From a phage: a stretch of 64,000 nt of DNA. The stretch lies in the sequence record PV467749.1; one strand, given 5' to 3'. The notes beneath the pieces are model-generated. The model was not told where the DNA came from, made no database searches, and worked only from the letters and a program-made list of their open reading frames with translations. The position numbers and the translations under genes were made by a program. This document shows positions 4,941 through 63,970 of this stretch, piece after piece; position 1 is the first letter of the stretch, and every line of letters starts with the position of its first letter.

Positions 4941-5197
4941 GAAATAACTCCTTGTGCAAAAAGTGCCGTATACAACCAGTATATCAGCAACCCTAGTGTA
5001 AGTAAACATGCTCCGTAAGAAATTGATAGAACATAGTAAATTCCTGCTTCTAACTTGGATGCAAATTTGTGTGTACTGGAATCCATAAAACCACGTTTGT
5101 AGTCTTTATAGATGAAACATGTTAAAACTAATGTAATGCAATATACAATAGTTGTTGCATAAAAAACAAGAGATGTTAAGTTTTGTAAATTTGTCAT
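4937..5197 (-). CDS. small membrane protein (86 aa)
   Basis: two predicted TM helices; AGGAG RBS sits inside a 7-bp hairpin (ATACACT/AGTGTAT) at 5212..5228. Confidence 0.5.
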   Translation of the reverse strand: MTNLQNLTSLVFYATTIVYCITLVLTCFIYKDYKRGFMDSSTHKFASKLEAGIYYVLSISYGACLLTLGLLIYWLYTALFAQGVIS

Positions 5198-48310: not shown

Positions 48311-48897
48311 AGTAGTTCCTTATACATTGCGTGTATTCTTTCAATATCTCTGTAATAACTCATATCTTCACGAGTATCATTAAAAATAGTAACACTGAAT
48401 ATATTAATACTAATTGAACTATTATCAATGTACTCTTTTAATTTATTATAAAGATATATACATTTAGTAGATGTATCATCCCACATAAGACTATTTTGAA
48501 AGATGTTTTCTTCTGTATTAGGATATAAGTACTGGTCAATATTGTACTCCAATGAACTATCACAGTTTTTATATACAGAAATAGATGGAAAATTTTTATT
48601 GTACATAATACTAATAACATTATCATTGTATGTAGAAATTAAACTGGTACTGGATGCTACACTTTCATCATAATTCAGTACTGAAATTCTTGCATTATCT
48701 GTGCAGTACAGATGTTTCATTCCACCTCTCATAGCCATAGTAAGAAATTTATCAGTGAACCATATTCCTTTTGTTTTCAGTATAGTTTCATGCATAAGAT
48801 AAGTTTCAATGAAGATTTTTACACGCTCAAATGCTAAGTCAAGTTCATTGTACATAACGGATATCCTTCTGTAAAGAATCAATATATTCTTTAACAA
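48301..48897 (-). CDS. array family A member
   Basis: 198 aa; core EENIFQNSLM. Confidence 0.6.
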   Translation of the reverse strand: MLKNILILYRRISVMYNELDLAFERVKIFIETYLMHETILKTKGIWFTDKFLTMAMRGGMKHLYCTDNARISVLNYDESVASSTSLISTYNDNVISIMYNKNFPSISVYKNCDSSLEYNIDQYLYPNTEENIFQNSLMWDDTSTKCIYLYNKLKEYIDNSSISINIFSVTIFNDTREDMSYYRDIERIHAMYKELLCY

Positions 48898-49036
48898 CTT
48901 GTTCCTGATACTGTGTGCCCAAATACATCAGTACTTTTAACTCTTTGAATTCAGTACTATATGAGTCGGTTTGCATCATTTTAGAAGAATATATATTGAA
49001 TAGTTTGGCAATATCATCTTGGTCTATTATTTTCAT
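48845..49036 (-). CDS. family B small protein
   Basis: 63 aa; LMYLGTQYQEQVVKEYIDSL. Confidence 0.5.
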   Translation of the reverse strand: MKIIDQDDIAKLFNIYSSKMMQTDSYSTEFKELKVLMYLGTQYQEQVVKEYIDSLQKDIRYVQ

Positions 49037-49241
49037 ATATTCTCTTCTGGATTAGTTCCTGTAAGTGCTGAATATAACCCTTCATTGCAACATCCTGTTT
49101 GTTAGAGCCAACGAAGAACAATAGCTTAAAGTCATGGTAATCCATTTTTGGTTTAGTAGTGAACCATATGTCCCACACTGCCCTCACAGTTCTCATGTAT
49201 TCAATTCGATTAAATGTTTTTGAATACTTCATCGAAATCAA
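49014..49241 (-). CDS. family B small protein
   Basis: 75 aa; LFFVGSNKQDVAMKGYIQHL. Confidence 0.5.
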   Translation of the reverse strand: MISMKYSKTFNRIEYMRTVRAVWDIWFTTKPKMDYHDFKLLFFVGSNKQDVAMKGYIQHLQELIQKRIYENNRPR

Positions 49242-49743
49242 CCTTTAATAAATTGATATTTAAATTACTGTTAAATGCCATCTGCAATTCCATATAGAAC
49301 TGAATAATAGCATAGTCAGGATCAGTACAAGATAGTTGAAAGCACTGTTCTTCAAATGAATTGTAATTGTACTTAGGAATATTAATAGTACGATATAACT
49401 CTGGATAACCCCATATCATAGTGTACACGTCAATTTCAGTACACTTTTTCTTAAAAGTCATCTGTCGAATAGTTTCAGATCTGGATTCAAGGTATACAAC
49501 ATTCTTATGAACGGCTGAACCAATTGAAAGCAATGATGTATCAATGACGTGTTTCTCACGTATCTCACACTTCTGGAATGCACCATTCCCTTGTAGAAGT
49601 TTATGGAAATCGTACTTCTCACTAATAACTGTACTAGGATCAATTAATCCAGTACTGCATTTTTTCAGTACTGGTACGATAGTGCGAATTTTTTTTGATA
49701 AATCTTGTAATGCATCATAATCATTAATGTTAATTTTTCTCAA
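49210..49743 (-). CDS. array family A member
   Basis: 177 aa; core EEQCFQLSCT. Confidence 0.6.
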   Translation of the reverse strand: MRKININDYDALQDLSKKIRTIVPVLKKCSTGLIDPSTVISEKYDFHKLLQGNGAFQKCEIREKHVIDTSLLSIGSAVHKNVVYLESRSETIRQMTFKKKCTEIDVYTMIWGYPELYRTINIPKYNYNSFEEQCFQLSCTDPDYAIIQFYMELQMAFNSNLNINLLKVDFDEVFKNI

Positions 49744-50185
49744 AGGATGCCTCTTCTATAGTAACGAAATCAACTAACCTATCCAGATTTTCAGTGTCAA
49801 GATAAAATACATCCAGTACTGACTTCTGATATAGTACACTAAATGTACATAGATTGTCAAGTGTTCCTTCATTATAAACAGTACTTCCCTGGAAGTACCC
49901 TTCTTCTGTACTCAGAGATAAAATATCAGAAATTTTAAAAGATTCTTCATTCTCATGACGCTCTATCGTAACTTCATCATATTTTCTGTTCAATGAAATA
50001 TAATCGTATGCTAACTCAATTAGACTATAATTATCCGCATTAGTATCAAATAAAGAATCAATTGTAATCTTCGTGCCATTAGAAACTTCTCTTCGTTCAT
50101 CATCTACGTATTCAGGATTTTCTTTGAAGAACTTAACAACTTTTAGAATATCATTTGCTTTCTTGATTGCACTTTCGTAACTCAT
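49730..50185 (-). CDS. array family A member
   Basis: 151 aa; core EEGYFQGSTV. Confidence 0.6.
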   Translation of the reverse strand: MSYESAIKKANDILKVVKFFKENPEYVDDERREVSNGTKITIDSLFDTNADNYSLIELAYDYISLNRKYDEVTIERHENEESFKISDILSLSTEEGYFQGSTVYNEGTLDNLCTFSVLYQKSVLDVFYLDTENLDRLVDFVTIEEASFEKN

Positions 50186-50624
50186 TTTTTCTGGACTCCA
50201 TATATATTACCTGATTTAGTTCATATACATAATCTAAATCAATGAATATAGAATTATTAAAGTTCTCTTGCAGGAATGCATTAAAAACTACTAAAGCTCT
50301 TAACGCCCCATTTGGGTATATAGTACTGTACTGGAAGTAAGCATCTTCTGAATTTAAAAATAGTACTTCTTCTTCTGTGAATTCAAAATATTTTCCACCT
50401 TCCTCTATATAATAGAAAGTTCCAGAATCCCATACGAAGTACTTGAATTCCAAATCATAATCATGGGACTCGTACTTATATTCATTACCTAATCCTAGAA
50501 TATCTGTACCAACACTTATAGTACTAATATATGCCCCTTTATAGTCTAAGTACTTTACATTATTTTGAAAGAACTTTACTATATTAACTAATTCCTCAGC
50601 GTGCTTAAGATCACTTTCGTACAT
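50151..50624 (-). CDS. array family A member
   Basis: 157 aa; core EDAYFQYSTI. Confidence 0.6.
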   Translation of the reverse strand: MYESDLKHAEELVNIVKFFQNNVKYLDYKGAYISTISVGTDILGLGNEYKYESHDYDLEFKYFVWDSGTFYYIEEGGKYFEFTEEEVLFLNSEDAYFQYSTIYPNGALRALVVFNAFLQENFNNSIFIDLDYVYELNQVIYMESRKNELRKCNQESK

Positions 50625-50938
50625 TATATTTCAATCTCTATATATTTTTGGGTAATTAAGTAATCCCAGTAGTACTTCACATGTTTTTGTATCTCAAGTA
50701 AAGCATAAAAATTAATTCTCTTATCCCATACAAGTGATTCCTGAAAAATAAATGATTCATGATCATCTCTGTAATCACATTCAAGGAAGTCAGGAAGATA
50801 ATCACAATCGTGAAGATATTCAATCATTAAAGATTCATTACATCTTCTAACGGCAAGGTGCTGGAAATTATCATGATCGAAGAAATACATTAAACTAATT
50901 GTACCTGGAATGTACTGAATACTGTATAATAATTTCAT
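50624..50938 (-). CDS. array family A member
   Basis: 104 aa; core ESFIFQESLV. Confidence 0.6.
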   Translation of the reverse strand: MKLLYSIQYIPGTISLMYFFDHDNFQHLAVRRCNESLMIEYLHDCDYLPDFLECDYRDDHESFIFQESLVWDKRINFYALLEIQKHVKYYWDYLITQKYIEIEI

Positions 50939-51378
50939 CGTTTACCCTTATGTTCGGCACGTACATATTCATAATCCAAATAAAACCTTGTACTATCAAT
51001 ACTTTTAAAGTACCACATAATAACTAAAGTATCTAGTACTTCATCATCATACAAAGTACTATTCTGAAAGTAATACTCTTCACTATCCCACGGACCTTTC
51101 AGTACTTCAAAGTTCAATTTTAAAGGTCTGCTGCGATTATAAAAACGGATTTCACCACCATAAGCATAACTGATAAATTCTGCATCTGGATTGTATTGTG
51201 AAAAATCTGCGGGACTTTTGGAATTCAGCCCAAGAATAACTGTAGTTGTGGTAAAATCACTATCCTTGTAGTAGTTACCATTCTCGGCTTTGTATACTTC
51301 TTCGAACTTCCCAGCCTTAATATCTTCAATATATGCCTGTAGTTCTTTTGCTTTATCAAGAGCACTTTGTAATGACAT
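50935..51378 (-). CDS. array family A member (four-gene sub-block 1/4)
   Basis: 147 aa; MSLQSALDKAKEL; core EEYYFQNSTL; WYFK..FYLDYEYV tail. Confidence 0.65.
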   Translation of the reverse strand: MSLQSALDKAKELQAYIEDIKAGKFEEVYKAENGNYYKDSDFTTTTVILGLNSKSPADFSQYNPDAEFISYAYGGEIRFYNRSRPLKLNFEVLKGPWDSEEYYFQNSTLYDDEVLDTLVIMWYFKSIDSTRFYLDYEYVRAEHKGKR

Positions 51379-51844
51379 TATCTTCCCCTACAGTATTCTC
51401 TACGTATTCATAATCGAAATAGAAACTATCAGAACCAATACTTTTAAAGTACCACATAATTACAATAACATCTAATTCTTCTTCATTGTACACAGTACTG
51501 TTCTGGAAGTAATATTCTTCACTATCCCACGGACCTTCTAGTACTGAATACGGAATGATTGTGTCATAATCATCGTAATCAGGGCTGTAAATTATAATAT
51601 CTTCATCTCTACAATAACTAATGTACTGATTGTACATATGATATTCACAGTCATCAGTATCACCCGTATCAGTGTGTAGTACTAACGTTTCTGCATGTAT
51701 CTCTGACTCATCATAATCGTCGCGGTCTTTTACAAAAAATTCAGTATCAGATGTTTTATACACACCAGGCACTGAACCTTCTTGTACCATAATCATGTAC
51801 TCATGAATCTTCTTTGCTTCTTTCAATGCACTTTCTAATGACAT
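51356..51844 (-). CDS. array family A member (sub-block 2/4)
   Basis: 162 aa; MSLESALKEAKKI; core EEYYFQNSTV. Confidence 0.65.
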   Translation of the reverse strand: MSLESALKEAKKIHEYMIMVQEGSVPGVYKTSDTEFFVKDRDDYDESEIHAETLVLHTDTGDTDDCEYHMYNQYISYCRDEDIIIYSPDYDDYDTIIPYSVLEGPWDSEEYYFQNSTVYNEEELDVIVIMWYFKSIGSDSFYFDYEYVENTVGEDNVITKCS

Positions 51845-51846
51845 TA

Positions 51847-52287
51847 CTAATCCCCTGTACTTAAATATTCACATGCTCCCCAGTCAAGGAAGAAGGGTTC
51901 AAAATTCAATTCCTTAAAGTACCACAAAACAACCAAGGAATCAAGCATTTCTTGGTTAAAAATAAGACTCTGTTGGAAGTAATACTCTTCAGTACCCCAC
52001 GGTCCATCAAGTACCCCGAAGTCAACAGGTGTATTTGATGTGTCAAAAGTAATCTTAGTACCTGGAATATATACAAAAAAACTAGTATATTGACTACATG
52101 AAGAGTACTGTATAGTATTGTCTTTATCATGGCCCATAAGTAAAATATCATCAGAGTATGTCTTTATACCTGATAGATAATACTCATTACCAAATGCACT
52201 TACTTTATCACCATAGAAACCACTTTTTATGTTATCGTGGAAGTGATGTATTTTGTGTGCCAGTTTAAGTGCACTTGCTAAACTCAT
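51847..52287 (-). CDS. array family A member (sub-block 3/4)
   Basis: 146 aa; MSLASALKLAHKI; core EEYYFQQSLI. Confidence 0.65.
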   Translation of the reverse strand: MSLASALKLAHKIHHFHDNIKSGFYGDKVSAFGNEYYLSGIKTYSDDILLMGHDKDNTIQYSSCSQYTSFFVYIPGTKITFDTSNTPVDFGVLDGPWGTEEYYFQQSLIFNQEMLDSLVVLWYFKELNFEPFFLDWGACEYLSTGD

Positions 52288-52754
52288 ATATCCTCTTTAA
52301 TAACTCGTAGTAGATCCAAGTCCAGATAGAAGCTAGGACAATCGGTATTATTAAAGTACCACAGAATGACAAGCTTGTCAAGCACATATTCCTCGTAGAT
52401 AGTATTCTGCTGGAAGTAGAACTCTTCACTTCCCCAGTCATTATCCAGTACTGAATACGGAAGATGTTTCTCTGCTGCACCAGTTTTAATGTCAGTATCT
52501 TGTATTAAAATATCAGCATCACGACAGAAGTACATGTAATTATCTTCCAGATTAACAACACACCCATTGAGTGTTGTTTCAGAAGAATCTAAGTTTTCTT
52601 CATACATGTGAATGTACTCACTACTGTCATCGTATATCATTCGACAATAAGCTTTACCTTCCTTGAATAGATACCCATTGAGACGATTGAGTACTATTTC
52701 CTTTTTACATAAATCAATTAACTTAGCAATTTCTAATGCTCTTGCAAAACTCAT
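52284..52754 (-). CDS. array family A member (sub-block 4/4)
   Basis: 156 aa; MSFARALEIAKLI; core EEFYFQQNTI. Confidence 0.65.
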   Translation of the reverse strand: MSFARALEIAKLIDLCKKEIVLNRLNGYLFKEGKAYCRMIYDDSSEYIHMYEENLDSSETTLNGCVVNLEDNYMYFCRDADILIQDTDIKTGAAEKHLPYSVLDNDWGSEEFYFQQNTIYEEYVLDKLVILWYFNNTDCPSFYLDLDLLRVIKEDI

Positions 52755-52755
52755 A

Positions 52756-52941
52756 TCAACTCCTGTGTTGTGTCTTGATATAATCTCGGTAAACCATGTG
52801 AATATTAGCTATATACAATTCACTAATATCATATGTACCGAAGTACATGTCATTCCTAATGCTGTTGTTATGTCTAATATCAATTACGAATCGTCGAAGT
52901 ATTGTATTCATGAATGATTCCATTTGTTCTTTTTTATTCAT
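52756..52941 (-). CDS. small hypothetical protein (61 aa)
   Basis: short ORF filling a gap between array members; weak family-B-like FGTYDISELY. Confidence 0.4.
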   Translation of the reverse strand: MNKKEQMESFMNTILRRFVIDIRHNNSIRNDMYFGTYDISELYIANIHMVYRDYIKTQHRS

Positions 52942-53282
52942 AGCTTAAAACGATACCTATCTTTGGAATCAGTCTCTATACAGATTCTTCTATATTCTTT
53001 CATCTTCTGTTGGAGTTCAATAACTTCCTCTAGTGTACACAAGTACTTCTTGTCAAATATTAATGACTCTTGAAATATTTCAGCCTCACCCTGTACAGTT
53101 GTATAGTCTTTCATATTTTCTACAACTGTTCCTTTGGACTGATAATCAATTAAGCTAAAGTAAGAACCATTAAATTTAATGTACTGATCCATTTTGTGTT
53201 CATAATCACCTTTGTTAAGATTGCAATACACTTCCAGTGAAGTACTAATCTTAGGTATAAACATAGAAAAATCATATGTCAT
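52938..53282 (-). CDS. array family A member (three-gene sub-block)
   Basis: 114 aa; core EAEIFQESLIFDKKYL. Confidence 0.6.
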   Translation of the reverse strand: MTYDFSMFIPKISTSLEVYCNLNKGDYEHKMDQYIKFNGSYFSLIDYQSKGTVVENMKDYTTVQGEAEIFQESLIFDKKYLCTLEEVIELQQKMKEYRRICIETDSKDRYRFKL

Positions 53283-53638
53283 TATGTAATTCCTATATTG
53301 AATTTGTATTCTTGATTAATACTTACATTGGATGTATTCAAAGCAGCATACTCTTTCATTTCATTTTGTATTGTAATAACTTCTTCAAATGTACACAAGT
53401 ACTTCTTATCAAATACTAATGCAGCTTGGAATAGTTCAGCGGCATCCATTACTGTATAATCCGGCATATCTTGATGTGGATACTGTAATGAATCGTAATC
53501 AATAAATGTAAATTTACCCTGAGTGTAATGAATATACTCATTTGCACTGTGCATTAAATCACCTTTGTTTAAATTACAAAAGTACTGAAAACTGTTCTTA
53601 AAAGAATGTACTGATATTACAAAATCAAATTCCATCAC
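53282..53638 (-). CDS. array family A member (three-gene sub-block)
   Basis: 118 aa; core AAELFQAALVFDKKYL. Confidence 0.6.
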   Translation of the reverse strand: MMEFDFVISVHSFKNSFQYFCNLNKGDLMHSANEYIHYTQGKFTFIDYDSLQYPHQDMPDYTVMDAAELFQAALVFDKKYLCTFEEVITIQNEMKEYAALNTSNVSINQEYKFNIGIT

Positions 53639-54048
53639 TCTTCCCCTAGATTGAAATGATTACTAAAATTAGTTTCACCAGTTTTACACCATTTATCTAT
53701 ACATTCCCTGTGAATGCATTTAATTCTACGCTGGATTTCAACAATCTCTTCTAATGTACAGATGTACTTCTTGTCAAATACTAATGACTCCTGAAATAGT
53801 GCAGCATCATCCATTAAGGTATAGTCCAGCATATCGGTTGCTTTACAACTAAATCCAGTACCAAGATCCATTAAATAAAATTGTGAATTCCAGAACTTTA
53901 TAACCTTGCCCCTTGTGTAGTTTAAATCACCTTTGTACAAATTACAACACGTAATCAACTCACCCGTGTACATCCATGTCCCTATACAAAATTCATTATA
54001 TTTTATTTCCATAATAATCTCTACTGTAATTAATAAGGTAAACTCCAA
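53635..54048 (-). CDS. array family A member (three-gene sub-block)
   Basis: 137 aa; core DAALFQESLVFDKKYI. Confidence 0.6.
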   Translation of the reverse strand: MEFTLLITVEIIMEIKYNEFCIGTWMYTGELITCCNLYKGDLNYTRGKVIKFWNSQFYLMDLGTGFSCKATDMLDYTLMDDAALFQESLVFDKKYICTLEEIVEIQRRIKCIHRECIDKWCKTGETNFSNHFNLGEE

Positions 54049-54210
54049 TATAAGGAGAACGTTTGCGGGGGCGGGGTATTTTTTGTTTCAGGAAACATGA
54101 ACTGTACTCTGTGAACACATTTTAAAACTTTATATTAAACATATACCTTAACATGTTTTTCAGCGAAAATTTTTTTGACCCCCCCAGCGGCCTGTGAAAA
54201 CGAAACGTCT

Positions 54211-54426
54211 CTATTTATTCAGCCTAGAAATCTTGATTTCTTCAATCCTTTTCATTGCACAAAGCCTTCGACTCGTCTTCTCGTATATATTCAATACTCG
54301 TTGTACTGCATTATCTGCATCTGCAATCTGAACCAAATATGTATCCTTCAAAATCGAATCCATCATGTATTCAAAACCTTTCACACTATAGCAATATACC
54401 ACTTCCGGCTCTTCAAACGTAATCAT
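54211..54426 (-). CDS. small hypothetical protein (71 aa), unrelated to family A
   Basis: ORF in the island that interrupts the array. Confidence 0.45.
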   Translation of the reverse strand: MITFEEPEVVYCYSVKGFEYMMDSILKDTYLVQIADADNAVQRVLNIYEKTSRRLCAMKRIEEIKISRLNK

Positions 54427-54616
54427 AATTCCAATCCCCTATCCCATCTAACCTTCTAAGATATCTTGCGTAAATTATTTCGAAATATCTGTGCAACGAA
54501 ATTACGGATTGCTCATAATCATCATTCCTGTACATTGTGCATGTAAGAAAATCATTTAAACCGTAATCTAAACTGCACTTGAACTTCTCCTTTGCAACAT
54601 CTCTAAAATTATCCAT
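54413..54616 (-). CDS. small hypothetical protein (67 aa), unrelated to family A
   Basis: ORF in the island; ATG 54616..54614. Confidence 0.45.
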   Translation of the reverse strand: MDNFRDVAKEKFKCSLDYGLNDFLTCTMYRNDDYEQSVISLHRYFEIIYARYLRRLDGIGDWNYDYV

Positions 54617-54771
54617 AATATGTCCTCTGCACAGCGTAGGTGTACTGTGAACTCAGCACCGTTAATAGGTAATCTATGTTGTAAGCACGATTTCCTCGTT
54701 GACTAGCACGGCTAGAATAAAGAATATTATCCACATATGTATCGAACTGTTCTTCAAATAACTCTTTCATC
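54609..54771 (-). CDS. candidate unannotated small ORF (~53 aa), approximate coordinates
   Basis: MKELFEEQFDTYVDNILYSS...; start preceded by a tandem 10-mer (AAAGGGTGCT x2 on the minus strand) supplying an AGGG RBS; stop overlaps the next ATG; coordinates +/-2. Confidence 0.3.
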
Positions 54772-54779
54772 AGCACCCT

Positions 54780-55406
54780 TTAGCACCCTTTAACAACTTT
54801 TGAAATGTAATCTTCTAATGCACCAATGTTCTTTGTATTCGTTCGAACTAAAAGATAACTTAAATCCTCGAACTCCTGAACATAATGCTTAACAGCGTAC
54901 ATGCATCGTAATTCAAAATCTGTATGAACCGTTTTGTACTGAAATAACATCTCTTCTGAAGCCTCTAAAAGCTCTGTGGCTTGTTCTGTACTGAACTTAA
55001 AGGGATTCTGTACTCCTGAACTAAAACACTTTTGTTCGTTCGTCTGGACACCCTGTGATAGATATAATCCTGTGCTACCATCTTGTGTTGATATCGAATT
55101 GAAACCATTACTTGCAACCATTAAATCTGAACTCAATACAAATAATAATTTATCTTCCTTATGAATTAATAAATCTGACTTCAGGGATTTTATTCCTGTA
55201 CTGGTTATATCACCTATACTAAGATTGTCACTGAACTTCTCAGCGTTGTTCGCAATGCTCTGGACAAGATTTTTTAATCTCTTAATGGCACTTCTGTCTT
55301 TTTCTAATGTATCTAATAAACTCATTGAACTCATTGTACTTTCCTTACATATTTGTACCGAACAAAACGGAACTTTGAATGCCATTAATCGACACTTCAT
55401 GTACAT
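54780..55406 (-). CDS. array family A member
   Basis: 208 aa; core EEMLFQYKTV. Confidence 0.6.
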   Translation of the reverse strand: MYMKCRLMAFKVPFCSVQICKESTMSSMSLLDTLEKDRSAIKRLKNLVQSIANNAEKFSDNLSIGDITSTGIKSLKSDLLIHKEDKLLFVLSSDLMVASNGFNSISTQDGSTGLYLSQGVQTNEQKCFSSGVQNPFKFSTEQATELLEASEEMLFQYKTVHTDFELRCMYAVKHYVQEFEDLSYLLVRTNTKNIGALEDYISKVVKGC

Positions 55407-55689
55407 ATATATTTTGTCTGAATACCTGAAGCAATTGAACTAAACTCTGTTGCATAATAATATGCATCGCTAAATTATCAAAGGCCGTTTCGTATTGGAA
55501 TCGTGCAGCTTCATCTTCTATGAAATTCGGAACTTGGACTGGATTTTCAAAATTTGTCCTTGTACTGAACTGTACATCATTGTCCTGTACCTTAATACCA
55601 TATGAATTATCATTGTTATCAACTACATCAAATTCAATTAAACTACCATCTTTACTGACGTTTACTATATAAACTGAAAATCTACTCAT
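55345..55689 (-). CDS. array family A member
   Basis: 114 aa; core EAARFQYETA. Confidence 0.55.
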   Translation of the reverse strand: MSRFSVYIVNVSKDGSLIEFDVVDNNDNSYGIKVQDNDVQFSTRTNFENPVQVPNFIEDEAARFQYETAFDNLAMHIIMQQSLVQLLQVFRQNIYVHEVSINGIQSSVLFGTNM

Positions 55690-56324
55690 AATCCTATTTC
55701 CTTTAAATCTTCCAAAAATGTTTCATAATCACTTAAGGAAAAAAAGATATCCGTATCGATGTTCGCATCTAATACATTATACAAATTCTGCATCTGTAAC
55801 ACATCAGGAGCATCAATCAATGATTGCTGGAAATATGCAGCTTCATCTTCTAAAATATCCCTGAATGATCTCTCTCGTACTCTGTGGTGTACTGAATTGA
55901 ATATTGATTTCTCATCCTTAAGCATTGGTAGGTATCGAATGTACATGTGTTCTCTTAGCTCTGGACTGATGGAACCCCTGAACTGTAACACGTATTCGAA
56001 GCACATAACAACATCCTGAAGGTAATTGGCACTGTAATTATTGCTGTAAACAATCTTATGACTTCTGAACTCATCATCATTTCTGAACCAATTGTCACCT
56101 ACTCTGGTGTACTTATGACTAAGCAATCCACCCTCTAACGCTTTGATGATCTTCAAAATGTTGTGTGCAAATGCATATGATGTATTGTACTTGGCCTGAT
56201 ACATGTGTGCCTCAACCTTATCTTGTGTTAAAATATTCACTGAAATGATTATAACACAAAAGCACCACGATGTTAAGCACTCTGTTGTCAAAATCATCTT
56301 GTGATGTAGGATGCAAGGACGCAT
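55686..56324 (-). CDS. array family A member
   Basis: 212 aa track ORF; core EAAYFQQSLI; probable start at internal Met near 56204 (GAGG RBS). Confidence 0.6.
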   Translation of the reverse strand: MRPCILHHKMILTTECLTSWCFCVIIISVNILTQDKVEAHMYQAKYNTSYAFAHNILKIIKALEGGLLSHKYTRVGDNWFRNDDEFRSHKIVYSNNYSANYLQDVVMCFEYVLQFRGSISPELREHMYIRYLPMLKDEKSIFNSVHHRVRERSFRDILEDEAAYFQQSLIDAPDVLQMQNLYNVLDANIDTDIFFSLSDYETFLEDLKEIGL

Positions 56325-56412
56325 TGATGTTAAAATTCACTATATCATTGTGGAATTGGTATGTGAACAAATCAAACTTCGTATGCCTTTGTTTGATATC
56401 ATAGGCGGTCAT
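56218..56412 (-). CDS. small hypothetical protein (64 aa)
   Basis: ATG start; stop overlaps the RBS of the downstream family A gene; becomes non-overlapping if the 55686 gene starts at the internal Met. Confidence 0.4.
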   Translation of the reverse strand: MTAYDIKQRHTKFDLFTYQFHNDIVNFNINASLHPTSQDDFDNRVLNIVVLLCYNHFSEYFNTR

Positions 56413-56413
56413 A

Positions 56414-57022
56414 TTATATATTCAACCCTTTAACAATGGAAATAAATTCTTTGTATACATTTTCAGGTAAAGCTCTACTACCATAAAGAACACTAAATTC
56501 AGGTAACATATCCGAAATCTCTTTCGCTAAATTTATTTCATCCCTGAACATTTGCACAGGCATGATATCCTGTACCAATGATAACTGAAAGAAAAATGAT
56601 TCAATATCTTCATGCACCTCTGAATTTAAATAAATCTCTTCTGGAAACTGGGCTGTACTGTAATAATAAAATACGTCAATTCTTTTTTCATTATTTTGTA
56701 CAAGAGGTAAATTTCTTTCGTCTCTCTTATTAATATTTGTTTTCCATGACTCAATGTTATTCGGAACCCAAAACTCATAAGGTGTCTTCTCTCCTGAAAT
56801 ATTATCCAGCTTCAATCCATAATATTCACTTTCGCCGTACTTTTGCTTCAAAACAATACCTGTACTACTAATGTTTACAATGTACGTATCAACAATCCCT
56901 TCTGTGGTAAAAGGAATATTTAACTCTGAACCTTCAGGGTACTTAGCATTGAATGCATCTAATGCTTTACTTAGCACTGGAATTGCACTTGTACTGTACT
57001 TCATTAATTGGTCTATGTTCAT
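56414..57022 (-). CDS. array family A member
   Basis: 202 aa; core ESFFFQLSLV. Confidence 0.6.
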   Translation of the reverse strand: MNIDQLMKYSTSAIPVLSKALDAFNAKYPEGSELNIPFTTEGIVDTYIVNISSTGIVLKQKYGESEYYGLKLDNISGEKTPYEFWVPNNIESWKTNINKRDERNLPLVQNNEKRIDVFYYYSTAQFPEEIYLNSEVHEDIESFFFQLSLVQDIMPVQMFRDEINLAKEISDMLPEFSVLYGSRALPENVYKEFISIVKGLNI

Positions 57023-57603
57023 TTTAATTCCCCTGTAATCATACTGATATTTGAACGATACATATCGTACACTGTACTTTCTTTCTTGTGCACAATGAAA
57101 TCATAAAGATCAACAAATGCAGGAATAATAATCTTGAATGATTTATTTGGGTACGTCCCAAAATCAACTGTACTCAATTTTGCAACGAGCATAACAACAA
57201 AGATTTCTTCTGGACTATGCAATGTACTGTACTGAAAATATTCCTCAGCACTCATGGCACTTATTGCATTTATATCTTGTGTTTGTAATGTAATATTAAG
57301 ATATTCAAAAATAGAATAAAACTCTGATTTTGTTTGTATTTTGTATTTGTCAATTGGGGTATCTCTCATGAACCATAAACGGTCCTGACCATAAAAAGGA
57401 ATGATTGAATTTGGGGAACCCAAAAAAACTTCTTCTCTATCAATATCCTTTAACTCAATTTGCATACCGGATGAATTGGCAATAATTAATTCATTAAAAA
57501 TGTAATGAACCTTGTGTACAATCTCTTGTACTGAATTGAAATCATCTGGTATTTTAAAATTTTCCATAGGTATCTCCTTAAAAATGATTACACATTGTAC
57601 CAT
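57019..57603 (-). CDS. array family A member
   Basis: 194 aa; core AEEYFQYSTL. Confidence 0.6.
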   Translation of the reverse strand: MVQCVIIFKEIPMENFKIPDDFNSVQEIVHKVHYIFNELIIANSSGMQIELKDIDREEVFLGSPNSIIPFYGQDRLWFMRDTPIDKYKIQTKSEFYSIFEYLNITLQTQDINAISAMSAEEYFQYSTLHSPEEIFVVMLVAKLSTVDFGTYPNKSFKIIIPAFVDLYDFIVHKKESTVYDMYRSNISMITGELK

Positions 57604-57640
57604 GCATTTGTACTCGTGTCAAACAAAAAAAGCCCATATC

Positions 57641-58138
57641 TTACGATACAGGCATGTTTATTTGAATTTCATTGTACAAATCATCAATATATAGACATGA
57701 AAACGATAAACTTTCTTTAACTATATTGTTGTGATAAAGCATTTTAAACACTATATAGAAAAATAAATCAATATCATCATGAACTAAATTCTGCTGGAAC
57801 CACCACTCTTCTGTTAAATCTTGTGCATTAAAATCATCAGGAACTTCAATTGACGACATATCAGCATCTTCTTTGTACTCAAACCACATGTCGTCATTTG
57901 GAAAACGTTCATGCTTCTCTGGGTAACAATTGCTGGGATTAAATGCTAAAATATAAAATACCGTCGCAGAATGTTCTTTATTAAAAAATGAATTATTCCA
58001 CACCTGATACCTTTCACCAACATCAAGCTCTTTTGATACTGATGTTATTGCACATAATGTACGATATATTGTTTCTATTTTGTGAACAAATTTAAAGGCT
58101 GCATCTAAACTAAACTCTAAATCAGACATGCGGTGCAT
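57641..58138 (-). CDS. array family A member
   Basis: 165 aa; core EEWWFQQNLV. Confidence 0.6.
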   Translation of the reverse strand: MHRMSDLEFSLDAAFKFVHKIETIYRTLCAITSVSKELDVGERYQVWNNSFFNKEHSATVFYILAFNPSNCYPEKHERFPNDDMWFEYKEDADMSSIEVPDDFNAQDLTEEWWFQQNLVHDDIDLFFYIVFKMLYHNNIVKESLSFSCLYIDDLYNEIQINMPVS

Positions 58139-58458
58139 AAAATTACCTCAACTAAAATAAGAACGGTATTGAATTCGAGGCAACCTTTGATACCTTGATT
58201 GTACATGTACTTTGCTACTACATATTTCTGTACTAAATTATAATTATTAAATTCCTCAAAATTGTAATTTAGAATGAAATTTGTACTCAAAAATAACTTA
58301 TGCATCTCTAATGCACTCTGATAATATTTGTACAACTCACTGATATCAATACTTTGTAAATCACTTTGTTCATATGTATGATAAGGAATGGCGTCAATAT
58401 CAATATTATTAAACCATTCTCTTAACTTATTAATATCAAATGTATTATTCAGCTTCAT
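58117..58458 (-). CDS. array ORF, divergent family A-like
   Basis: 113 aa; ISELYKYYQSAL. Confidence 0.45.
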   Translation of the reverse strand: MKLNNTFDINKLREWFNNIDIDAIPYHTYEQSDLQSIDISELYKYYQSALEMHKLFLSTNFILNYNFEEFNNYNLVQKYVVAKYMYNQGIKGCLEFNTVLILVEVILCTACLI

Positions 58459-59023
58459 AACTCAATACCTCCATTAAGCACTCATAAACACCATCAATCG
58501 CATAAGCACAAAAACTGAAATTAATTTTGTTATTCTTGTGTAATGGACTATCGTGTACTGTACTCAACATAACACTATAAAACAAAGAACGTTCATGTGT
58601 AAATAATGATTCCTGAAAAAATGCTTCCTCTGATTTAATTTTATTATATTCAATCGATTGATCATTAGAATAAAATGAATCTTGATTTGAATTGTACCAT
58701 GTGTAATCCAAATCATTCTTTGATATAACTGGTGTTGGATTAAACTGTAAAAGACTAATAACACTACGGGCATTTGGGGTATCAGGTGTATTGAATCGTT
58801 TATCAAAATGACTCGTGCACGCAATATGTGAATCAAAATCAGATGGTTTAAACCCCATGAATGCGTTAATGATTCTTGTATATGGTTTTTTATTATGTGC
58901 TGCTTTCTGTACATTATATAAGGCTGCAACAATACAAGCTAACTTTTGTCCCATAAGGATTGCATTAGCGTAGGTGTACTGAATTTCATTGTACTCATTG
59001 CTTTCATTGTACTTCGAGATCAT
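58445..59023 (-). CDS. array family A member
   Basis: 192 aa; core EEAFFQESLF. Confidence 0.6.
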   Translation of the reverse strand: MISKYNESNEYNEIQYTYANAILMGQKLACIVAALYNVQKAAHNKKPYTRIINAFMGFKPSDFDSHIACTSHFDKRFNTPDTPNARSVISLLQFNPTPVISKNDLDYTWYNSNQDSFYSNDQSIEYNKIKSEEAFFQESLFTHERSLFYSVMLSTVHDSPLHKNNKINFSFCAYAIDGVYECLMEVLSYEAE

Positions 59024-59345
59024 GGAACAGCCTCACTTTGCCTAACTCGTCATTGGATATAAATTCGTTAACAGCTTTCTGTATATTCCTTAATAATAGC
59101 ACATCAAATCCTTTTGTGTCAAGCACACATTGCATTTGGAAGAATTCTTCTTCTGATAATGTATTAAAATCCACAAAATTGTCTAATATTACGTCATTAT
59201 CCAAATGTGCCATGTGCCATGTATTTCTTTCGGAGCGTTTAATAAAATTCCATCCATCTGGATAATCGGGTTCTAATTCTACATATATCCCCGATACTGT
59301 ATAAAGCATTTTATATATCATAACTATTGTACTCATTGCTTTCAC
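59004..59345 (-). CDS. array family A member (near-duplicate pair)
   Basis: 113 aa; DFNTLSEEEFFQMQCVLD. Confidence 0.65.
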   Translation of the reverse strand: MKAMSTIVMIYKMLYTVSGIYVELEPDYPDGWNFIKRSERNTWHMAHLDNDVILDNFVDFNTLSEEEFFQMQCVLDTKGFDVLLLRNIQKAVNEFISNDELGKVRLFHDLEVQ

Positions 59346-59653
59346 TGTACGTCGATGTCATAATACGCTCCTACCTCATAATCTTTCTTGCTTTGGAATT
59401 CATTAACGACTTTCTGTATATTTCTTAATGTTACCATGTCATGTCCGTACATGTCAACCACCAATTGCATTTGGAAAAATTCTTCTTCAGATAATGTATT
59501 AAAATCTATAAAATAATCCGTAACAACATGTTCGTCTAAATTTGCCATGTACCATTGATTGGTATCGACCTCTTTAACCAAATTCCATGCATCTGGATCG
59601 GATTCTAATTCTACATATATTAATGTTAATGTATACAGCATTTTATACTTCAT
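59342..59653 (-). CDS. array family A member (near-duplicate pair)
   Basis: 103 aa; DFNTLSEEEFFQMQLVVD. Confidence 0.65.
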   Translation of the reverse strand: MKYKMLYTLTLIYVELESDPDAWNLVKEVDTNQWYMANLDEHVVTDYFIDFNTLSEEEFFQMQLVVDMYGHDMVTLRNIQKVVNEFQSKKDYEVGAYYDIDVQ

Positions 59654-60203
59654 AACTATATCCTTGCATTAAAAGAACATAAGCAATATCAACTAATTCT
59701 AAACGAATGAAAAATTTTAAATTATCTTTCAATAGATTCAAATGCATTATACTAAACAACATAAGATACTTCATTTGATTTGTATTGTATATTAGGGATG
59801 TCTGAAATACTTCTGCTTCATTGTAAGGATCAATAAATTTTATACCTTCTTCACTGTAATCCGTTTTGGAATTCTGATATATAAAATAATCATCACCAGC
59901 ATTGTACCACAAATAACCTTCAAAACTAGAATCAAATTCTGAATTTTCATTTCGCATTAAAGGTGATACTGAAATTGGATTTGAACCAACTGTTGCACAA
60001 ACCTCAATGTAAGCATCTTCACTTCCCTTAACTTCCTCTTTGATTTTATCATTGTACTGTCCTGCAAAACCAGCTTTTACTTCCAAATATAAACTACTCC
60101 CAACTTTATTAATTCTTAAAAGGGAACTCTGTACTGTATTCGCATTGTTCAGCACTAACGATATTGTGCAAATCTTATGTACCAATAACTCAATATCATT
60201 CAT
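59643..60203 (-). CDS. array family A member
   Basis: 186 aa; core EAEVFQTSLI. Confidence 0.6.
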   Translation of the reverse strand: MNDIELLVHKICTISLVLNNANTVQSSLLRINKVGSSLYLEVKAGFAGQYNDKIKEEVKGSEDAYIEVCATVGSNPISVSPLMRNENSEFDSSFEGYLWYNAGDDYFIYQNSKTDYSEEGIKFIDPYNEAEVFQTSLIYNTNQMKYLMLFSIMHLNLLKDNLKFFIRLELVDIAYVLLMQGYSYEV

Positions 60204-60214
60204 ATTGGTATTCC

Positions 60215-60397
60215 TTAATTTGGTGGATTTGGATGTAATAAACGATCTTGATAATTTAAATGCTCTTGTAATATTGCACTAAGATAATAACTAAAATCAT
60301 TAATTCCACCCTTTAAATGTATATTGTAATACATCTTAATGCTTGTAATCAATGAATTATTTAAATCATCAAATGTTCTTGCTTCATATGATTTCAT
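60215..60397 (-). CDS. small hypothetical protein (60 aa)
   Basis: short ORF between array members. Confidence 0.35.
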   Translation of the reverse strand: MKSYEARTFDDLNNSLITSIKMYYNIHLKGGINDFSYYLSAILQEHLNYQDRLLHPNPPN

Positions 60398-60536
60398 TAA
60401 AATTCTTCCCTCAAATAACGCTTAATGGCACAATCTAAATAAAAATCATAATACATCATATCTCTATTCTTAACCCATACACAATAATCTGCATTAATAT
60501 TTCTTAATAATATATTCATATTATAATCTTCACACC

Positions 60537-60947
60537 CTAATCGTGCCATTTAATAGGATACTCCGTTCCATTTATTGTATAAGATATAATCCATCCGTAA
60601 TGAATAGGATGATTTTTGTCTGAAACAGGAATAAAATATAAAGATGTACTAGGATTATAACTGAATAAATCGTTGTTACCAATTGTAAAATGTGATAACT
60701 CAATCTTCCTTGTACCTGTACTTGGACGAAGAACATTCTTAACACCGAAGACTGTACCTTGATATTTCTCGGAAAATTCAAACAATGCATCTGCAATTAA
60801 ATCACGAAACTCCGCATGTATGGTTTCAAAAAAATCTATATTACACGATGTTTTAATATCCTTGAACTCCTTATATAAAGAGCTTCTTGTATTCAAAAGA
60901 AATATTACTTTTTTAAGATCCTGAACTATTTCTGGATTCATATTCAT
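60537..60947 (-). CDS. hypothetical protein, not family A
   Basis: 136 aa; no FQ core. Confidence 0.5.
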   Translation of the reverse strand: MNMNPEIVQDLKKVIFLLNTRSSLYKEFKDIKTSCNIDFFETIHAEFRDLIADALFEFSEKYQGTVFGVKNVLRPSTGTRKIELSHFTIGNNDLFSYNPSTSLYFIPVSDKNHPIHYGWIISYTINGTEYPIKWHD

Positions 60948-61188
60948 TTATCTCATTCTGTAACTTAAGCATCAAAATTTGCATATTAATTTTTTGTACA
61001 AGATGATTGAGAAATTTCTGTACTGTATCTTCTTGTTCTTTTGTACCAAGATAAAATAACATATTAAATTCAGATAATCTCAGAGCGAAATCTTCCTCTC
61101 CCCCTAGTAAACAAAAATCCCTGTACTTTGAAGCATACAAATAAGCATCTATCTTTTTATAATTCACTGTACTTCCTTTCATATGCAT
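60913..61188 (-). CDS. family B small protein
   Basis: 91 aa; LFYLGTKEQEDTVQKFLNHL. Confidence 0.5.
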   Translation of the reverse strand: MHMKGSTVNYKKIDAYLYASKYRDFCLLGGEEDFALRLSEFNMLFYLGTKEQEDTVQKFLNHLVQKINMQILMLKLQNEINEYESRNSSGS

Positions 61189-61199
61189 TAGGTATCTCC

Positions 61200-61511
61200 T
61201 TATATATTGACATGTTTTGTTATCCCTGCTGTACCTTGTATTAAATTATCATACATATCGAGCATCACTTTTTGAATACTAATTAATACTGGCATCGTGC
61301 AAATATCAATGTCGTATATTAAGCTGTACTGGAATAATTCCTCTTCCTGCATTTGTACTAAATTAGGTAAAAGATAATTGTCTGCCTCTTCATCCTGGTA
61401 CTTGAAATGCATAACACCATCCTTTTTGTACAAAAGAATGTCAATATCACCTAACTCTTCTGCATAACCAAAAATACATATACTCGATGTTTTTGCTATA
61501 TTAAATTTCAT
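61200..61511 (-). CDS. array family A member
   Basis: 103 aa; core EEELFQYSLI. Confidence 0.6.
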   Translation of the reverse strand: MKFNIAKTSSICIFGYAEELGDIDILLYKKDGVMHFKYQDEEADNYLLPNLVQMQEEELFQYSLIYDIDICTMPVLISIQKVMLDMYDNLIQGTAGITKHVNI

Positions 61512-61520
61512 ATTCTTCTC

Positions 61521-61871
61521 TTATATGTAGAATTCACATACGCGTTGAACAAAATTCTTTGGAAGATGACAATGTGCAATCATCTGCTTTTGTACTTCCT
61601 TCATGTCTTCGAATGTAAATCCTAAAGAATCATCATGTACTAACAAGTACTGAAACTCTTCTTCTTCAGAGATAGAACATAAATTCGGTACTGAAATTGT
61701 TTTTGCTTTTCTTGCACCCAATTTCCAATGAAAAGAATTATTGCATTTTCTGTACTCAAATATCTTCAACCCAGAACCTGTATTAAAATCAGCTACTACA
61801 ATGTAACATGAATTCTTACGTACAATACAATTGAACTTACGCATTATCTCCACCTCTCTCCGTCTGTACAA
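61521..61871 (-). CDS. array family A member
   Basis: 116 aa track ORF; core EEEEFQYLLV; probable start at Met10 (61844) behind a GGAGAGAGGTGGAG RBS. Confidence 0.6.
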   Translation of the reverse strand: MYRRREVEIMRKFNCIVRKNSCYIVVADFNTGSGLKIFEYRKCNNSFHWKLGARKAKTISVPNLCSISEEEEFQYLLVHDDSLGFTFEDMKEVQKQMIAHCHLPKNFVQRVCEFYI

Positions 61872-62089
61872 GAGTACTGGTACGTTGTCGTTAGGGTAGG
61901 GACCATGTTTGTAATGGGCATATTATTAACAATAACGGTAACAGGCATAAGAATCGTCTCTTCTCTACTCTGTCCTGTCCTTGTGCAATTCATCTTTTGC
62001 ATTTCATCGGACTCCATGAAATACAATACAAATGGTGCAATCCCAAGAACAATACACAAGACGATAAGGAAATTTAAAAAATTCAACAT
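61844..62089 (-). CDS. small membrane protein (81 aa) embedded in the array
   Basis: ATG 62089..62087 with GGGG RBS; hydrophobic LNFLNFLIVLCIVLGIAPFVLYF; stop TAA overlaps the downstream ATG (TAATG). Confidence 0.45.
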   Translation of the reverse strand: MLNFLNFLIVLCIVLGIAPFVLYFMESDEMQKMNCTRTGQSREETILMPVTVIVNNMPITNMVPTLTTTYQYSCTDGERWR

Positions 62090-62153
62090 AATTTTTACCC
62101 CATGATTAACGTACAGGTACTATATCAGTAATGAAAAGTACTGTCAAGTACTG

Positions 62154-62369
62154 TCATTTGCATTTGGACTTTATTTGACACATCAACCCCCAAATTAAAT
62201 ATCGAACACTATCAGCTTGATAGTTTGTTCCTACTGTGTGTTTTAAGATTAACTCATCTTTCAGTACTGAACATTCTGCATTAGATATAGGAAGAGAATT
62301 AATTCTTTTAATTTCTGGTTGTAAAGTCCTGATAAGATTGGTGTAATCTTTGTATGATAATCTTTTCAT
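62154..62369 (-). CDS. family B small protein (divergent)
   Basis: 71 aa; HTVGTNYQADSVRYLIWGL. Confidence 0.45.
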   Translation of the reverse strand: MKRLSYKDYTNLIRTLQPEIKRINSLPISNAECSVLKDELILKHTVGTNYQADSVRYLIWGLMCQIKSKCK

Positions 62370-62372
62370 TGT

Positions 62373-62714
62373 TCAGTACTCAACGATGTGTTCTTCATAA
62401 CCATTAAACTCCGGTTTAGTTTCTTTCATTAGGACTACCATTTTATGTACTAATGGCATAGGAAATTCTAAATCCCATACTAATGATTCTTGAAAGTATT
62501 CTTCTTCAGATAAAGTACTTAAATCTTTAATATCAACGTGCTTGTATATTTTATTTTCGTAATTAAGAAATGATATATATAAATCATTAACATAAGAATC
62601 ATAAGTAATTGTGAATGGCTTACCCTTGTAGTCCATTACATCTTTACATAGACTGCATTTGATATATGTATGTTCTTCTGAACTGTATACATTGAGTTGT
62701 ATATTAGTTTTCAT
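62373..62714 (-). CDS. array family A member (near-duplicate pair)
   Basis: 113 aa; MKTNIQLNVY...DLSTLSEEEYFQESLVWDLEFPMPLVHKMVVL. Confidence 0.65.
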   Translation of the reverse strand: MKTNIQLNVYSSEEHTYIKCSLCKDVMDYKGKPFTITYDSYVNDLYISFLNYENKIYKHVDIKDLSTLSEEEYFQESLVWDLEFPMPLVHKMVVLMKETKPEFNGYEEHIVEY

Positions 62715-62728
62715 AGTTACCTTATATA

Positions 62729-63067
62729 TTAATACTCAATAATGTGATCTTCATAACCATTAGGTACAGGCTTAGTTTCTTTTATTAGTACTATCATCTT
62801 ATGTACTAATGGCATAGGAAACTCCAAATCCCATACTAATGATTCTTGAAAGTATTCCTCTTCAGATAAAGTACTTAAATCTTCAATGTCAATGTGTTCG
62901 TACATGTTATATTTGTAATCAGCAAAAGATATATAAAAACCTCTTGTATTATCATAAGTAAGTGCAAATGGCTTACCTTTGTAGTCCATTACAGAGTTAC
63001 ATGTATGGCATTTGATGTATGTACTTGCAAATGATTTATATACCTTGAGTTTTATATTAGTTTTCAT
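62729..63067 (-). CDS. array family A member (near-duplicate pair)
   Basis: 112 aa; MKTNIKLKVY...DLSTLSEEEYFQESLVWDLEFPMPLVHKMIVL. Confidence 0.65.
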   Translation of the reverse strand: MKTNIKLKVYKSFASTYIKCHTCNSVMDYKGKPFALTYDNTRGFYISFADYKYNMYEHIDIEDLSTLSEEEYFQESLVWDLEFPMPLVHKMIVLIKETKPVPNGYEDHIIEY

Positions 63068-63341
63068 ATTTCTCTTTATTAGCTTGTTTAGATTGTTTGG
63101 TTTTATAGTGAATGAAATCTATTAATGTAATCAAGTACAACGTCAAATAGTACTCTTGTTGATCTGTACCTAATGATACAAAGAACTTGTGCTCATAGAT
63201 TAAAACCTGTTTCTCTTCAAATGGACATTTAATCCTCTGTATAGGCTTAAGTAAATGATAGTACTTATTAAATCTATGATACATTTCTAGTTCTGTCAGT
63301 ACTTTCATATTAAACATGTACTCCATTAGCTGTAGCATCAC
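63057..63341 (-). CDS. family B small protein
   Basis: 94 aa; FFVSLGTDQQEYYLTLYLITL. Confidence 0.45.
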   Translation of the reverse strand: MMLQLMEYMFNMKVLTELEMYHRFNKYYHLLKPIQRIKCPFEEKQVLIYEHKFFVSLGTDQQEYYLTLYLITLIDFIHYKTKQSKQANKEKYEN

Positions 63342-63531
63342 GTAAAGCTCTCAAATACTTCTGTACTGCTTGCTCTTGATGATCTGTACCTAAAAGTATA
63401 TACATCCATAATTCACTGTAATGTACATCTTGTGTATAAGGGTTGTTGTAACTTTTTGATAATATAGCATCAAATTCAGATGCATGAACCCTTGCGAACT
63501 TAAGCATATCTTGTTGTGTTATGATTCTCAT
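63310..63531 (-). CDS. family B small protein
   Basis: 73 aa; MYILLGTDHQEQAVQKYLRAL. Confidence 0.5.
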   Translation of the reverse strand: MRIITQQDMLKFARVHASEFDAILSKSYNNPYTQDVHYSELWMYILLGTDHQEQAVQKYLRALRDATANGVHV

Positions 63532-63743
63532 ATCTTTTCCTGTACTATCTGCATAAGAATCTCTATGTGTGAATTAACAGTTCTCTCTTGATGCTGTGTT
63601 CCTAAGAGTGTCAGTACTATCATCTCTGAACGCAAAAGATTTTTTTCAAGTTCACTTATATCAGTTCTTGAATCAAGTGCCATATATTTGTGATTATTCT
63701 TCCTGAATAGTGCCAAGTACTCTTGATTTGATATTTCCTTCAT
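63528..63743 (-). CDS. family B small protein
   Basis: 71 aa; LTLLGTQHQERTVNSHIEIL. Confidence 0.5.
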   Translation of the reverse strand: MKEISNQEYLALFRKNNHKYMALDSRTDISELEKNLLRSEMIVLTLLGTQHQERTVNSHIEILMQIVQEKI

Positions 63744-63970
63744 AGTTTATTCCTGATGCCATTTAAAAGTGCTCTAATATGCTCCTGTACGAATTTGTAC
63801 TGACTGTCTGTTCCTAGAGTGAGTAGTAATCTTAAATCTGAACTTTTGATATGATATTCTAAATCATTATTTGATTCTTGCATCAGTTTCTTAAAGGATG
63901 AGAAGTTTGCAGCCATTAGTTCAATGTATTCTGCTGTTCCTAGTGGTTTGTGTATTGGCTGTTTGTGCAT
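63740..63970 (-). CDS. family B small protein
   Basis: 76 aa; LLLTLGTDSQYKFVQEHIRAL. Confidence 0.5.
   Translation of the reverse strand: MHKQPIHKPLGTAEYIELMAANFSSFKKLMQESNNDLEYHIKSSDLRLLLTLGTDSQYKFVQEHIRALLNGIRNKL

Follow-up and report, generated by a model that had tools for sequence, protein, structure and literature searches.

Genes at the locus

The window analysed here, a stretch of 64,000 nucleotides (nt) from the phage sequence record PV467749.1, contains eight open reading frames (ORFs) for small proteins between positions 48845 and 63970, hereafter referred to as family B. These ORFs are the window's portion of a tandem array into which a single small soluble protein, phrog_4148, has expanded in one phage lineage, and they are located beside and inside an array of a second paralogous family, family A. 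The window is 31-37% GC, with nearly all of its long ORFs on the minus strand. The DNA between positions 60000 and 64000 matches 36 phage records, all of them jumbo Escherichia or Salmonella myoviruses of the PBECO4/121Q group (genus Asteriusvirus), the closest being Escherichia phages WPEC3 (PV611058.1) and EC.P1 with 96% identity at 100% query coverage. All eight ORFs named in a preliminary description of this sequence were recovered where it had placed them, on the minus strand and with the motifs that it quoted. Listed from the window edge inwards, they are as follows, the E-values being those of the hidden Markov model (HMM) searches described below.

63740..63970, minus strand: family B, 76 amino acids (aa); HMM E 3.7e-31, leave-one-out E 1.6e-12; phrog_4148; ortholog P0001; no copy in the window lies further upstream, and three genes follow it in a long contiguous run
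63528..63743, minus strand: family B, 71 aa; leave-one-out E 4.5e-14; overlaps its upstream neighbour by 4 nt (ATGA); matched by tblastn in 34 Asteriusvirus records with 76-99% identity
63310..63531, minus strand: family B, 73 aa; the copy used for the structure model
63057..63341, minus strand: family B, 94 aa from GTG; leave-one-out E 2.3e-4; last gene of the contiguous run
62154..62369, minus strand: family B, 71 aa, isolated among family A genes; leave-one-out E 1.7e-7
60913..61188, minus strand: family B, 91 aa, isolated, with a C-terminal extension; leave-one-out E 4.2e-10; orthologs P0064 to P0120
49014..49241, minus strand: family B, 75 aa from TTG, inside the family A array; leave-one-out E 2.3e-6; ortholog P0073; carries the G-S form of the motif
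48845..49036, minus strand: family B, 63 aa, the shortest copy, inside the family A array; phrog_4148 E 1.4e-17 over residues 1-62, leave-one-out E 2.2e-13

Two of these genes are likely to start further downstream. The true start of 63057..63341 is likely the ATG at 63317, which is preceded by GGAG and gives a product of 86 aa, the length of orthologs P0003 and P0006, and the start-codon context makes the ATG at 49232 the likely start of 49014..49241. The isolated gene 62154..62369 has orthologs in WPEC3 and fEgEco12 (81-83%), while phAPEC6 gives paralog-level matches only and has no copy at that position. The other isolated gene, 60913..61188, overlaps the downstream 136-aa gene 60537..60947. 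A conserved two-gene module composed of this pair was considered and rejected, since the 136-aa gene was not found in divergent lineages.

Family B is a single homologous family

A common C-terminal signature (LGT-x-x-Q-E..V..Y-I/L..L) had been proposed for the eight proteins in the preliminary description, and their alignment bears this out, with one Gly, one Gln and one Leu being invariant and a profile of any seven sequences retrieving the eighth at E-values from 2.3e-4 to 4.5e-14. The leading LGT, on the other hand, was drawn too strictly, as two members read G-S or V-G-T instead. The leave-one-out test covered every window ORF of 35 aa or more (445 in total), and nothing outside family B scored even at E<100; likewise, an iterated HMM revealed no family B members in the window beyond the eight. 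All eight proteins match phrog_4148, a PHROG without functional annotation, over their full length (best member E 2.1e-22). Scans of the same proteins against Pfam, NCBIfam and PADLOC produced chance-level matches only. With respect to known defence and anti-defence families, one weak chance-level PADLOC match (E 0.0024) was obtained for one of the eight proteins, and there was no match to an annotated PHROG or to Pfam.

Extent of the array and packing of the genes

According to the preliminary description, the array was expected to extend beyond 64 kb, and in the closest relatives it does so. WPEC3 harbours 28-29 contiguous members, of which the window holds the last four, and in close relatives the run goes on for ~24 more overlapping genes past the point that corresponds to the window edge. 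The homologous region of WPEC3 contains 30 HMM members, including an uninterrupted run of 28, or 29 when a degenerate copy lacking the invariant Gln is counted; together with the pair at window positions 48845-49241, this gives ~32 family B copies per genome. In the regions examined, 29 copies are detectable in each of fEgEco12 and phAPEC6, and the divergent Turkey5/JNE01 lineage has 22. As to the placement, family B does lie beside and inside the family A array, but its four-gene run does not follow that array as had been described: the minus-strand orientation of the genes places the run before family A in the order of transcription.

The copies measure ~65-95 aa each, and in the WPEC3 run every gene overlaps its neighbour by 4-40 nt. 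Such overlaps leave no space for intergenic signals, hence the arrangement fits a translationally coupled operon. At the DNA level, a 25-nt repeat located at the family B motif recurs every ~215 nt in the window.

The array adjoins the long terminal repeat

The genome of WPEC3 carries an exact direct terminal repeat of 22,503 bp (bases 1-22,503 are 100% identical to bases 361,629-384,131), and its family B run, at 355,122-361,531, ends ~100 bp from this repeat. In the case of fEgEco12, the termini and a 20,993-bp repeat were established by PhageTerm and restriction digests (PMC13070987). The first family B gene of that phage, g057, starts at 21,091, that is, 98 bp past the repeat, and is followed by 28 more. 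In both phages, the array thus adjoins a long direct terminal repeat (~21-22.5 kb) and is oriented inward. A promoter-like TTGACT-N16-TATTAT of the sigma70 type, known by its match to the consensus only, is present ~30 nt upstream of the first family B gene of fEgEco12 and WPEC3, along with a GGAG ribosome-binding site; the -35 box and the GGAG site are kept in fEgEco12, WPEC3, phAPEC6 and the divergent Turkey5. From the position of the run and this promoter, transcription is therefore expected to lead from the terminal repeat into the B run, then through a mixed zone and into the family A array.

The small genes of the repeat itself, among them one for a DksA/TraR-type zinc-finger protein, are separated by gaps of 60-100 bp, some of which contain a perfect TTGACA-N16-TATAAT. 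Spaced small genes also precede the B run of a divergent metagenomic relative, and one of them, at 4832-5083 of region L004, codes for a protein with a ParE-like toxin domain (PF24732, E 1.9e-10). Exactly at the inner boundary of the terminal repeat of fEgEco12 (region L008, 3380-3410) and WPEC3 (region L003, ~17498), a GC-rich element, GGGCGGGTAACC followed by TTAGCGACTTCG, stands out in a genome of 33% GC; it is kept in phAPEC6 and Turkey5. This element is a candidate recognition or cleavage site for the formation of the terminal repeat.

Several other features accompany the passage from the B run to the A array. At this boundary, the minus strand of the window encodes at 61844-62089 a protein of 81 aa (phrog_8826) whose N-terminal part is a hydrophobic helix, and it is kept at the same boundary in Turkey5 and in two divergent metagenomic relatives (44-59% identity). 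The best sigma70-like site of the region, TTGACA-17-TATAGT with a TG, is found just upstream of this gene, at 62147-62119. Further downstream, one of the rare intergenic gaps between family A genes contains a putative terminator hairpin and T-run (57632-57653, minus strand), directly followed by a near-consensus promoter, TTGACA-17-TACAAT with a TG (57594-57622, minus strand), which suggests internal transcript boundaries.

Distribution

When 1.84 billion representative proteins were searched exhaustively with the HMM, family B matches at E<=1e-3 numbered only 53. Two word-seeded profile searches of 5.8 billion proteins yielded Asteriusvirus-like contigs only, the second and broader of them finding no relatives outside this group. 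By tblastn, family B was detected in 34 phage records, all of Escherichia or Salmonella jumbo phages. The most divergent representatives come from uncultured relatives and are 30-50% identical to the WPEC3 copies; two contigs of such relatives keep the order of a B-rich run, a mixed zone and an A-rich array. The searched literature on Asteriusvirus holds no description of family B, and neither the copy number of phrog_4148 nor its array, genome position or fold was found described there. The family is catalogued only as an unannotated PHROG. The literature searches likewise turned up no Asteriusvirus transcriptome.

Many family B homologs (P0019, P0026, P0036 and others) are labelled 'Escherichia coli' and are located on contigs of 343-358 kb. 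Since complete Asteriusvirus genomes have the same size, these contigs are phage genomes in bacterial assemblies, in line with published accounts of lytic phages that persist in isolates of bacteria.

Predicted fold and conserved positions

Structure prediction, a step proposed in the preliminary description, was carried out for 63310..63531 with AlphaFold2 on an alignment of 57 sequences. It gave a confident, compact four-helix fold (helices 6-15, 17-25, 31-46 and 52-68) with a predicted local distance difference test score (pLDDT) of 95.8 and a predicted template modelling score (pTM) of 0.82. The model contains a G48-T49-x-x-Q52 turn and a small bridge that links residue 2 to Thr49. Over the 32 paralogs of one genome, the conserved positions comprise a core (L4, Y9, L13, I23, V36, L43, L47, V56, Y59, I60, L63 and I67) and the turn itself, namely G48 (91%), T49 (97%), N50, Q52 (100%) and E53; acidic residues E8, E40 and E53 are semi-conserved, and the remaining positions have an entropy of >3 bits. 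The motif L-G-T-x-x-Q-E..V..YI..L therefore combines hydrophobic-core positions with the turn that joins helices 3 and 4, which makes it a signature of the fold and not a catalytic motif; judging from the Thr-x-x-Gln spacing, this turn may cap helix 4. Outside these positions the paralogs differ widely, with a median identity of 24%, isoelectric points of 4.4-10.0 and net charges from -7.4 to +9.8.

Foldseek comparison with the viral models of BFVD returned the family's own members only (from 121Q, UB, slurp01 and PBECO4), a profile search of PDB sequences produced no match better than E 0.29, and no specific relative of the four-helix model was found among solved PDB structures. The likeness to tetratricopeptide repeat (TPR)-like or alpha-solenoid hairpins is not specific: Z stays below 8 throughout, with identities of 2-14% spread over heterogeneous matches, and there is no TPR signal in Pfam. 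Scores of this kind would be reached by any two antiparallel helical hairpins.

A small helical protein in which a conserved Gly-Thr turn leads into a helix with Gln as its first residue, a spacing loosely reminiscent of a helix-turn-helix, may bring to mind nucleic-acid-binding regulators, such as small transcription factors or nucleoid-associated proteins that would reprogram host or phage transcription. About half of the copies are basic, one member has a weak, sub-threshold match to the Sar regulator family (E 0.02), and such a role has been proposed for the ~35-copy zinc-ribbon expansion of phage G (PMC7824862). For family B, however, neither a helix-turn-helix or ribbon-helix-helix fold or profile match nor a conserved basic DNA-contact surface was found, so a regulatory role of this type seems quite unlikely.

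Duplication and selection

As tandem duplication would predict, similarity is higher between adjacent copies than between non-adjacent ones (0.32 vs 0.25, p 4.5e-5). When WPEC3 is compared with phAPEC6, 28 of the 30 copies have reciprocal-best 1:1 orthologs, the order is largely kept and the identity varies from 47 to 100% along the array. The pooled ratio of nonsynonymous to synonymous substitution rates (dN/dS) between these two phages is 0.38 for family B, 0.37 for family A and 0.38 for other neighbours. Divided by position class, family B has a dN/dS of 0.20 in the core and of 0.40-0.42 at surface sites that differ between paralogs. These are therefore real coding genes, and the surface of each paralog is conserved between orthologs, which points to paralog-specific functions rather than redundant copies. 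An origin from non-coding or repeat DNA was rejected on account of the dN/dS below 1, the 1:1 orthologs and the confident fold.

It is nevertheless conceivable that the copies are largely dispensable by-products of runaway tandem duplication in a recombination-prone region near the terminal repeat and have no individual function. The duplication signature would suit such an origin, as would the copy numbers that differ between lineages (~32, 29 and 22), the mosaic ortholog identity along the array and the degenerate copy of WPEC3; moreover, Rak2-like phages carry ~10% paralogs (PMC3622015). Against this stand the intact reading frames of all copies, the 1:1 orthology of nearly all of them, the constraint that extends even to the paralog-variable surface, and the retention of the family in lineages that share only 30-50% protein identity. 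Dispensability thus appears rather improbable.

Turnover is also suggested by the adjoining genes. The adjacent family A genes 62373-62714 and 62729-63067, both on the minus strand, share 79-86% DNA identity (repeats D1 and D2), indicating a recent tandem duplication. At this A/B stretch phAPEC6 has fewer genes and also lacks the B gene 62154-62369, which points to ongoing gain and loss.

Relation to family A

The preliminary description had treated family B as a second paralogous family distinct from family A, and this proved to be correct. A profile built on the 'EE.[YF]FQ.S' core of family A detected 41 members in the window, at 35331-63067 plus one at 22032, all with an invariant Phe-Gln; this count is to be read as at least 41 copies. 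Comparison of the two families with hhalign showed no homology (probability at most 0.4%).

A functional partnership between the two families had also been put forward, in which each B protein would regulate, chaperone or neutralise family A proteins in the manner of toxin-immunity or effector-chaperone pairs. Both families are present in exactly the same phage group and in the same 34-36 phage records. They adjoin each other on one strand, in a block without interruption where a few B genes lie among A genes, and the order of B run, mixed zone and A array is kept in divergent lineages. However, all these records belong to one phage lineage, hence the co-occurrence is indistinguishable from co-inheritance, and the conserved order shows a shared, uninterrupted same-strand block, presumably a shared transcription unit, and not an interaction. 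In addition, no 1:1 pairing is observed: ~28 B genes form a run of their own that is free of A genes, and only four of the ~32 are found among the ~41 A genes, a pattern that WPEC3, Turkey5 and two metagenomic relatives share. The partnership is therefore not supported by the present data, and we consider it unlikely.

A third tandem family, 'C', is found in WPEC3 outside the window, on the other side of the terminal repeat (region L002, 22806-27208). It consists of ~19 proteins of ~60 aa with an N-terminal 'M..HKE[FY]Y..L' and is interrupted by one family-A-like gene of 219 aa. By hhalign, family C is unrelated to A or B, the probability for B and C being at most 0.4%.

Virion proteins

The virions of Asteriusvirus are complex and have many uncharacterised parts, and other paralog arrays of the genome, those of RCC1-like proteins, are probably virion-associated. 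Family B proteins might accordingly be sought among virion, scaffold or assembly proteins, e.g. internal head proteins or chaperones of the hair-like fibres. In phAPEC6, however, mass spectrometry of virions, which can miss small proteins, identified 62 proteins (PMC7247149, Table 1), none of them a product of the B genes (gp462-gp489) or of the family A genes, and the array is situated in a block proximal to the terminal repeat, with sigma70-type promoters and far from the structural genes. A structural or assembly function is thus regarded as very improbable. The RCC1-like ('regulator of chromosome condensation') paralogs, at least 12 in number, lie on the opposite strand of WPEC3, outside the window (region L002, 27311-40000). 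Their counterparts in phAPEC6 are probably the 'DNA condensation protein' set gp003-gp009, gp549 and gp551, which was detected among the virion proteins by mass spectrometry (PMC7247149).

Proposed function of family B

The reading of family B that we prefer, albeit tentatively, as it seems possible rather than probable, is that of a co-expressed early set of specialised small binders that serve host takeover or counter-defence. The host RNA polymerase would transcribe the run early, as one translationally coupled polycistronic unit, in which case the cell would receive a cocktail of ~30 related mini-proteins. Each paralog might then be specialised to bind or inhibit its own target, in the host or possibly in the phage, and the proteins would be neither virion components nor stoichiometric partners of family A.

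Several points weigh against an early set of host-directed binders. Small proteins are easily missed by mass spectrometry of virions, which bears on their absence from the phAPEC6 list. The early timing is deduced from position and promoter consensus. Furthermore, promoter and terminator scans of the whole region showed no enrichment over shuffled sequence, and the promoter evidence used here was confined to the positional conservation of individual sites. In the absence of homology or structural likeness to characterised proteins, the terms 'binder' and 'host target' derive from the evolutionary pattern alone. Finally, the purifying selection on family B equals that on the neighbouring genes (0.38 vs 0.37-0.38), i.e. 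there is no arms-race signature at the level of orthologs.

A more specific version of the same idea, to which we assign a low yet not negligible likelihood, is an 'adaptor library', in which a common docking turn for one shared partner is combined with hypervariable but ortholog-constrained faces that each capture a different host protein. The docking site would consist of the invariant Gly-Thr-x-x-Gln-Glu turn together with E8, E40 and E53 and would be common to all ~30 paralogs. The shared partner would belong either to the host, as a machine of the protease or RNA polymerase kind, or to the phage, where a family A protein is one possibility. Such proteins would serve as a combinatorial set of inhibitors or adaptors against polymorphic host defences and would be produced from the first DNA to be transcribed.

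Around the genome ends of these ~350-kb phages, ~90 genes belong to three orphan, lineage-specific tandem families (A with at least 41 members, B, and C with ~19). Should early host manipulation by these families be correct, they would constitute a large natural panel of small, confidently foldable binders that could be mined for inhibitors of the defence or housekeeping systems of E. coli, and the main value of the family lies in this supply of candidate host-modulating mini-proteins. Should the copies be dispensable instead, the families would show how jumbo genomes inflate through local duplication.

Comparison with known systems

A numerical precedent is the zinc-ribbon expansion of Bacillus phage G, which, with ~35 copies, was called 'unprecedented' (Iyer et al. 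2021, PMC7824862). Family B resembles it in being a small domain present at ~30 or more copies within one jumbo phage lineage, but it is all-helical and metal-free and belongs to an unrelated phage group, and the Asteriusvirus expansion is not mentioned in that study. With phrog_4148 the relationship is one of identity, as all eight proteins match it over their full length, although the PHROG entry itself was built automatically and bears no annotation.

The host-takeover module of phage SPO1 and the pre-early genes of T5 are mostly unrelated single-copy genes inside a long direct terminal repeat. Like them, the genes of family B encode small, non-virion, uncharacterised proteins and are situated next to a long repeat, inward from a putative promoter of the host type. 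In contrast to these modules, family B is one family, amplified ~30-fold just outside the repeat; it shares no sequence or structural homology with them, and its early timing is inferred.

Among the large eukaryotic DNA viruses, the multigene families (MGF) of African swine fever virus (ASFV) and the terminal gene families of poxviruses have an established role in host range and immune evasion. Family B differs from them in viral realm and hosts and has no homology to them, its own role in host range or immune evasion being inferred only. The likeness is that of tandem paralogs near the genome ends, with strain-variable copy number, a conserved scaffold and divergent surfaces. If family B does take part in early host manipulation, it would be one of the rare cases in which a phage follows the terminal multigene family strategy of these viruses, and if its members work as adaptors with one common docking turn, they would be to bacteriophages what such terminal families are to poxviruses and ASFV.

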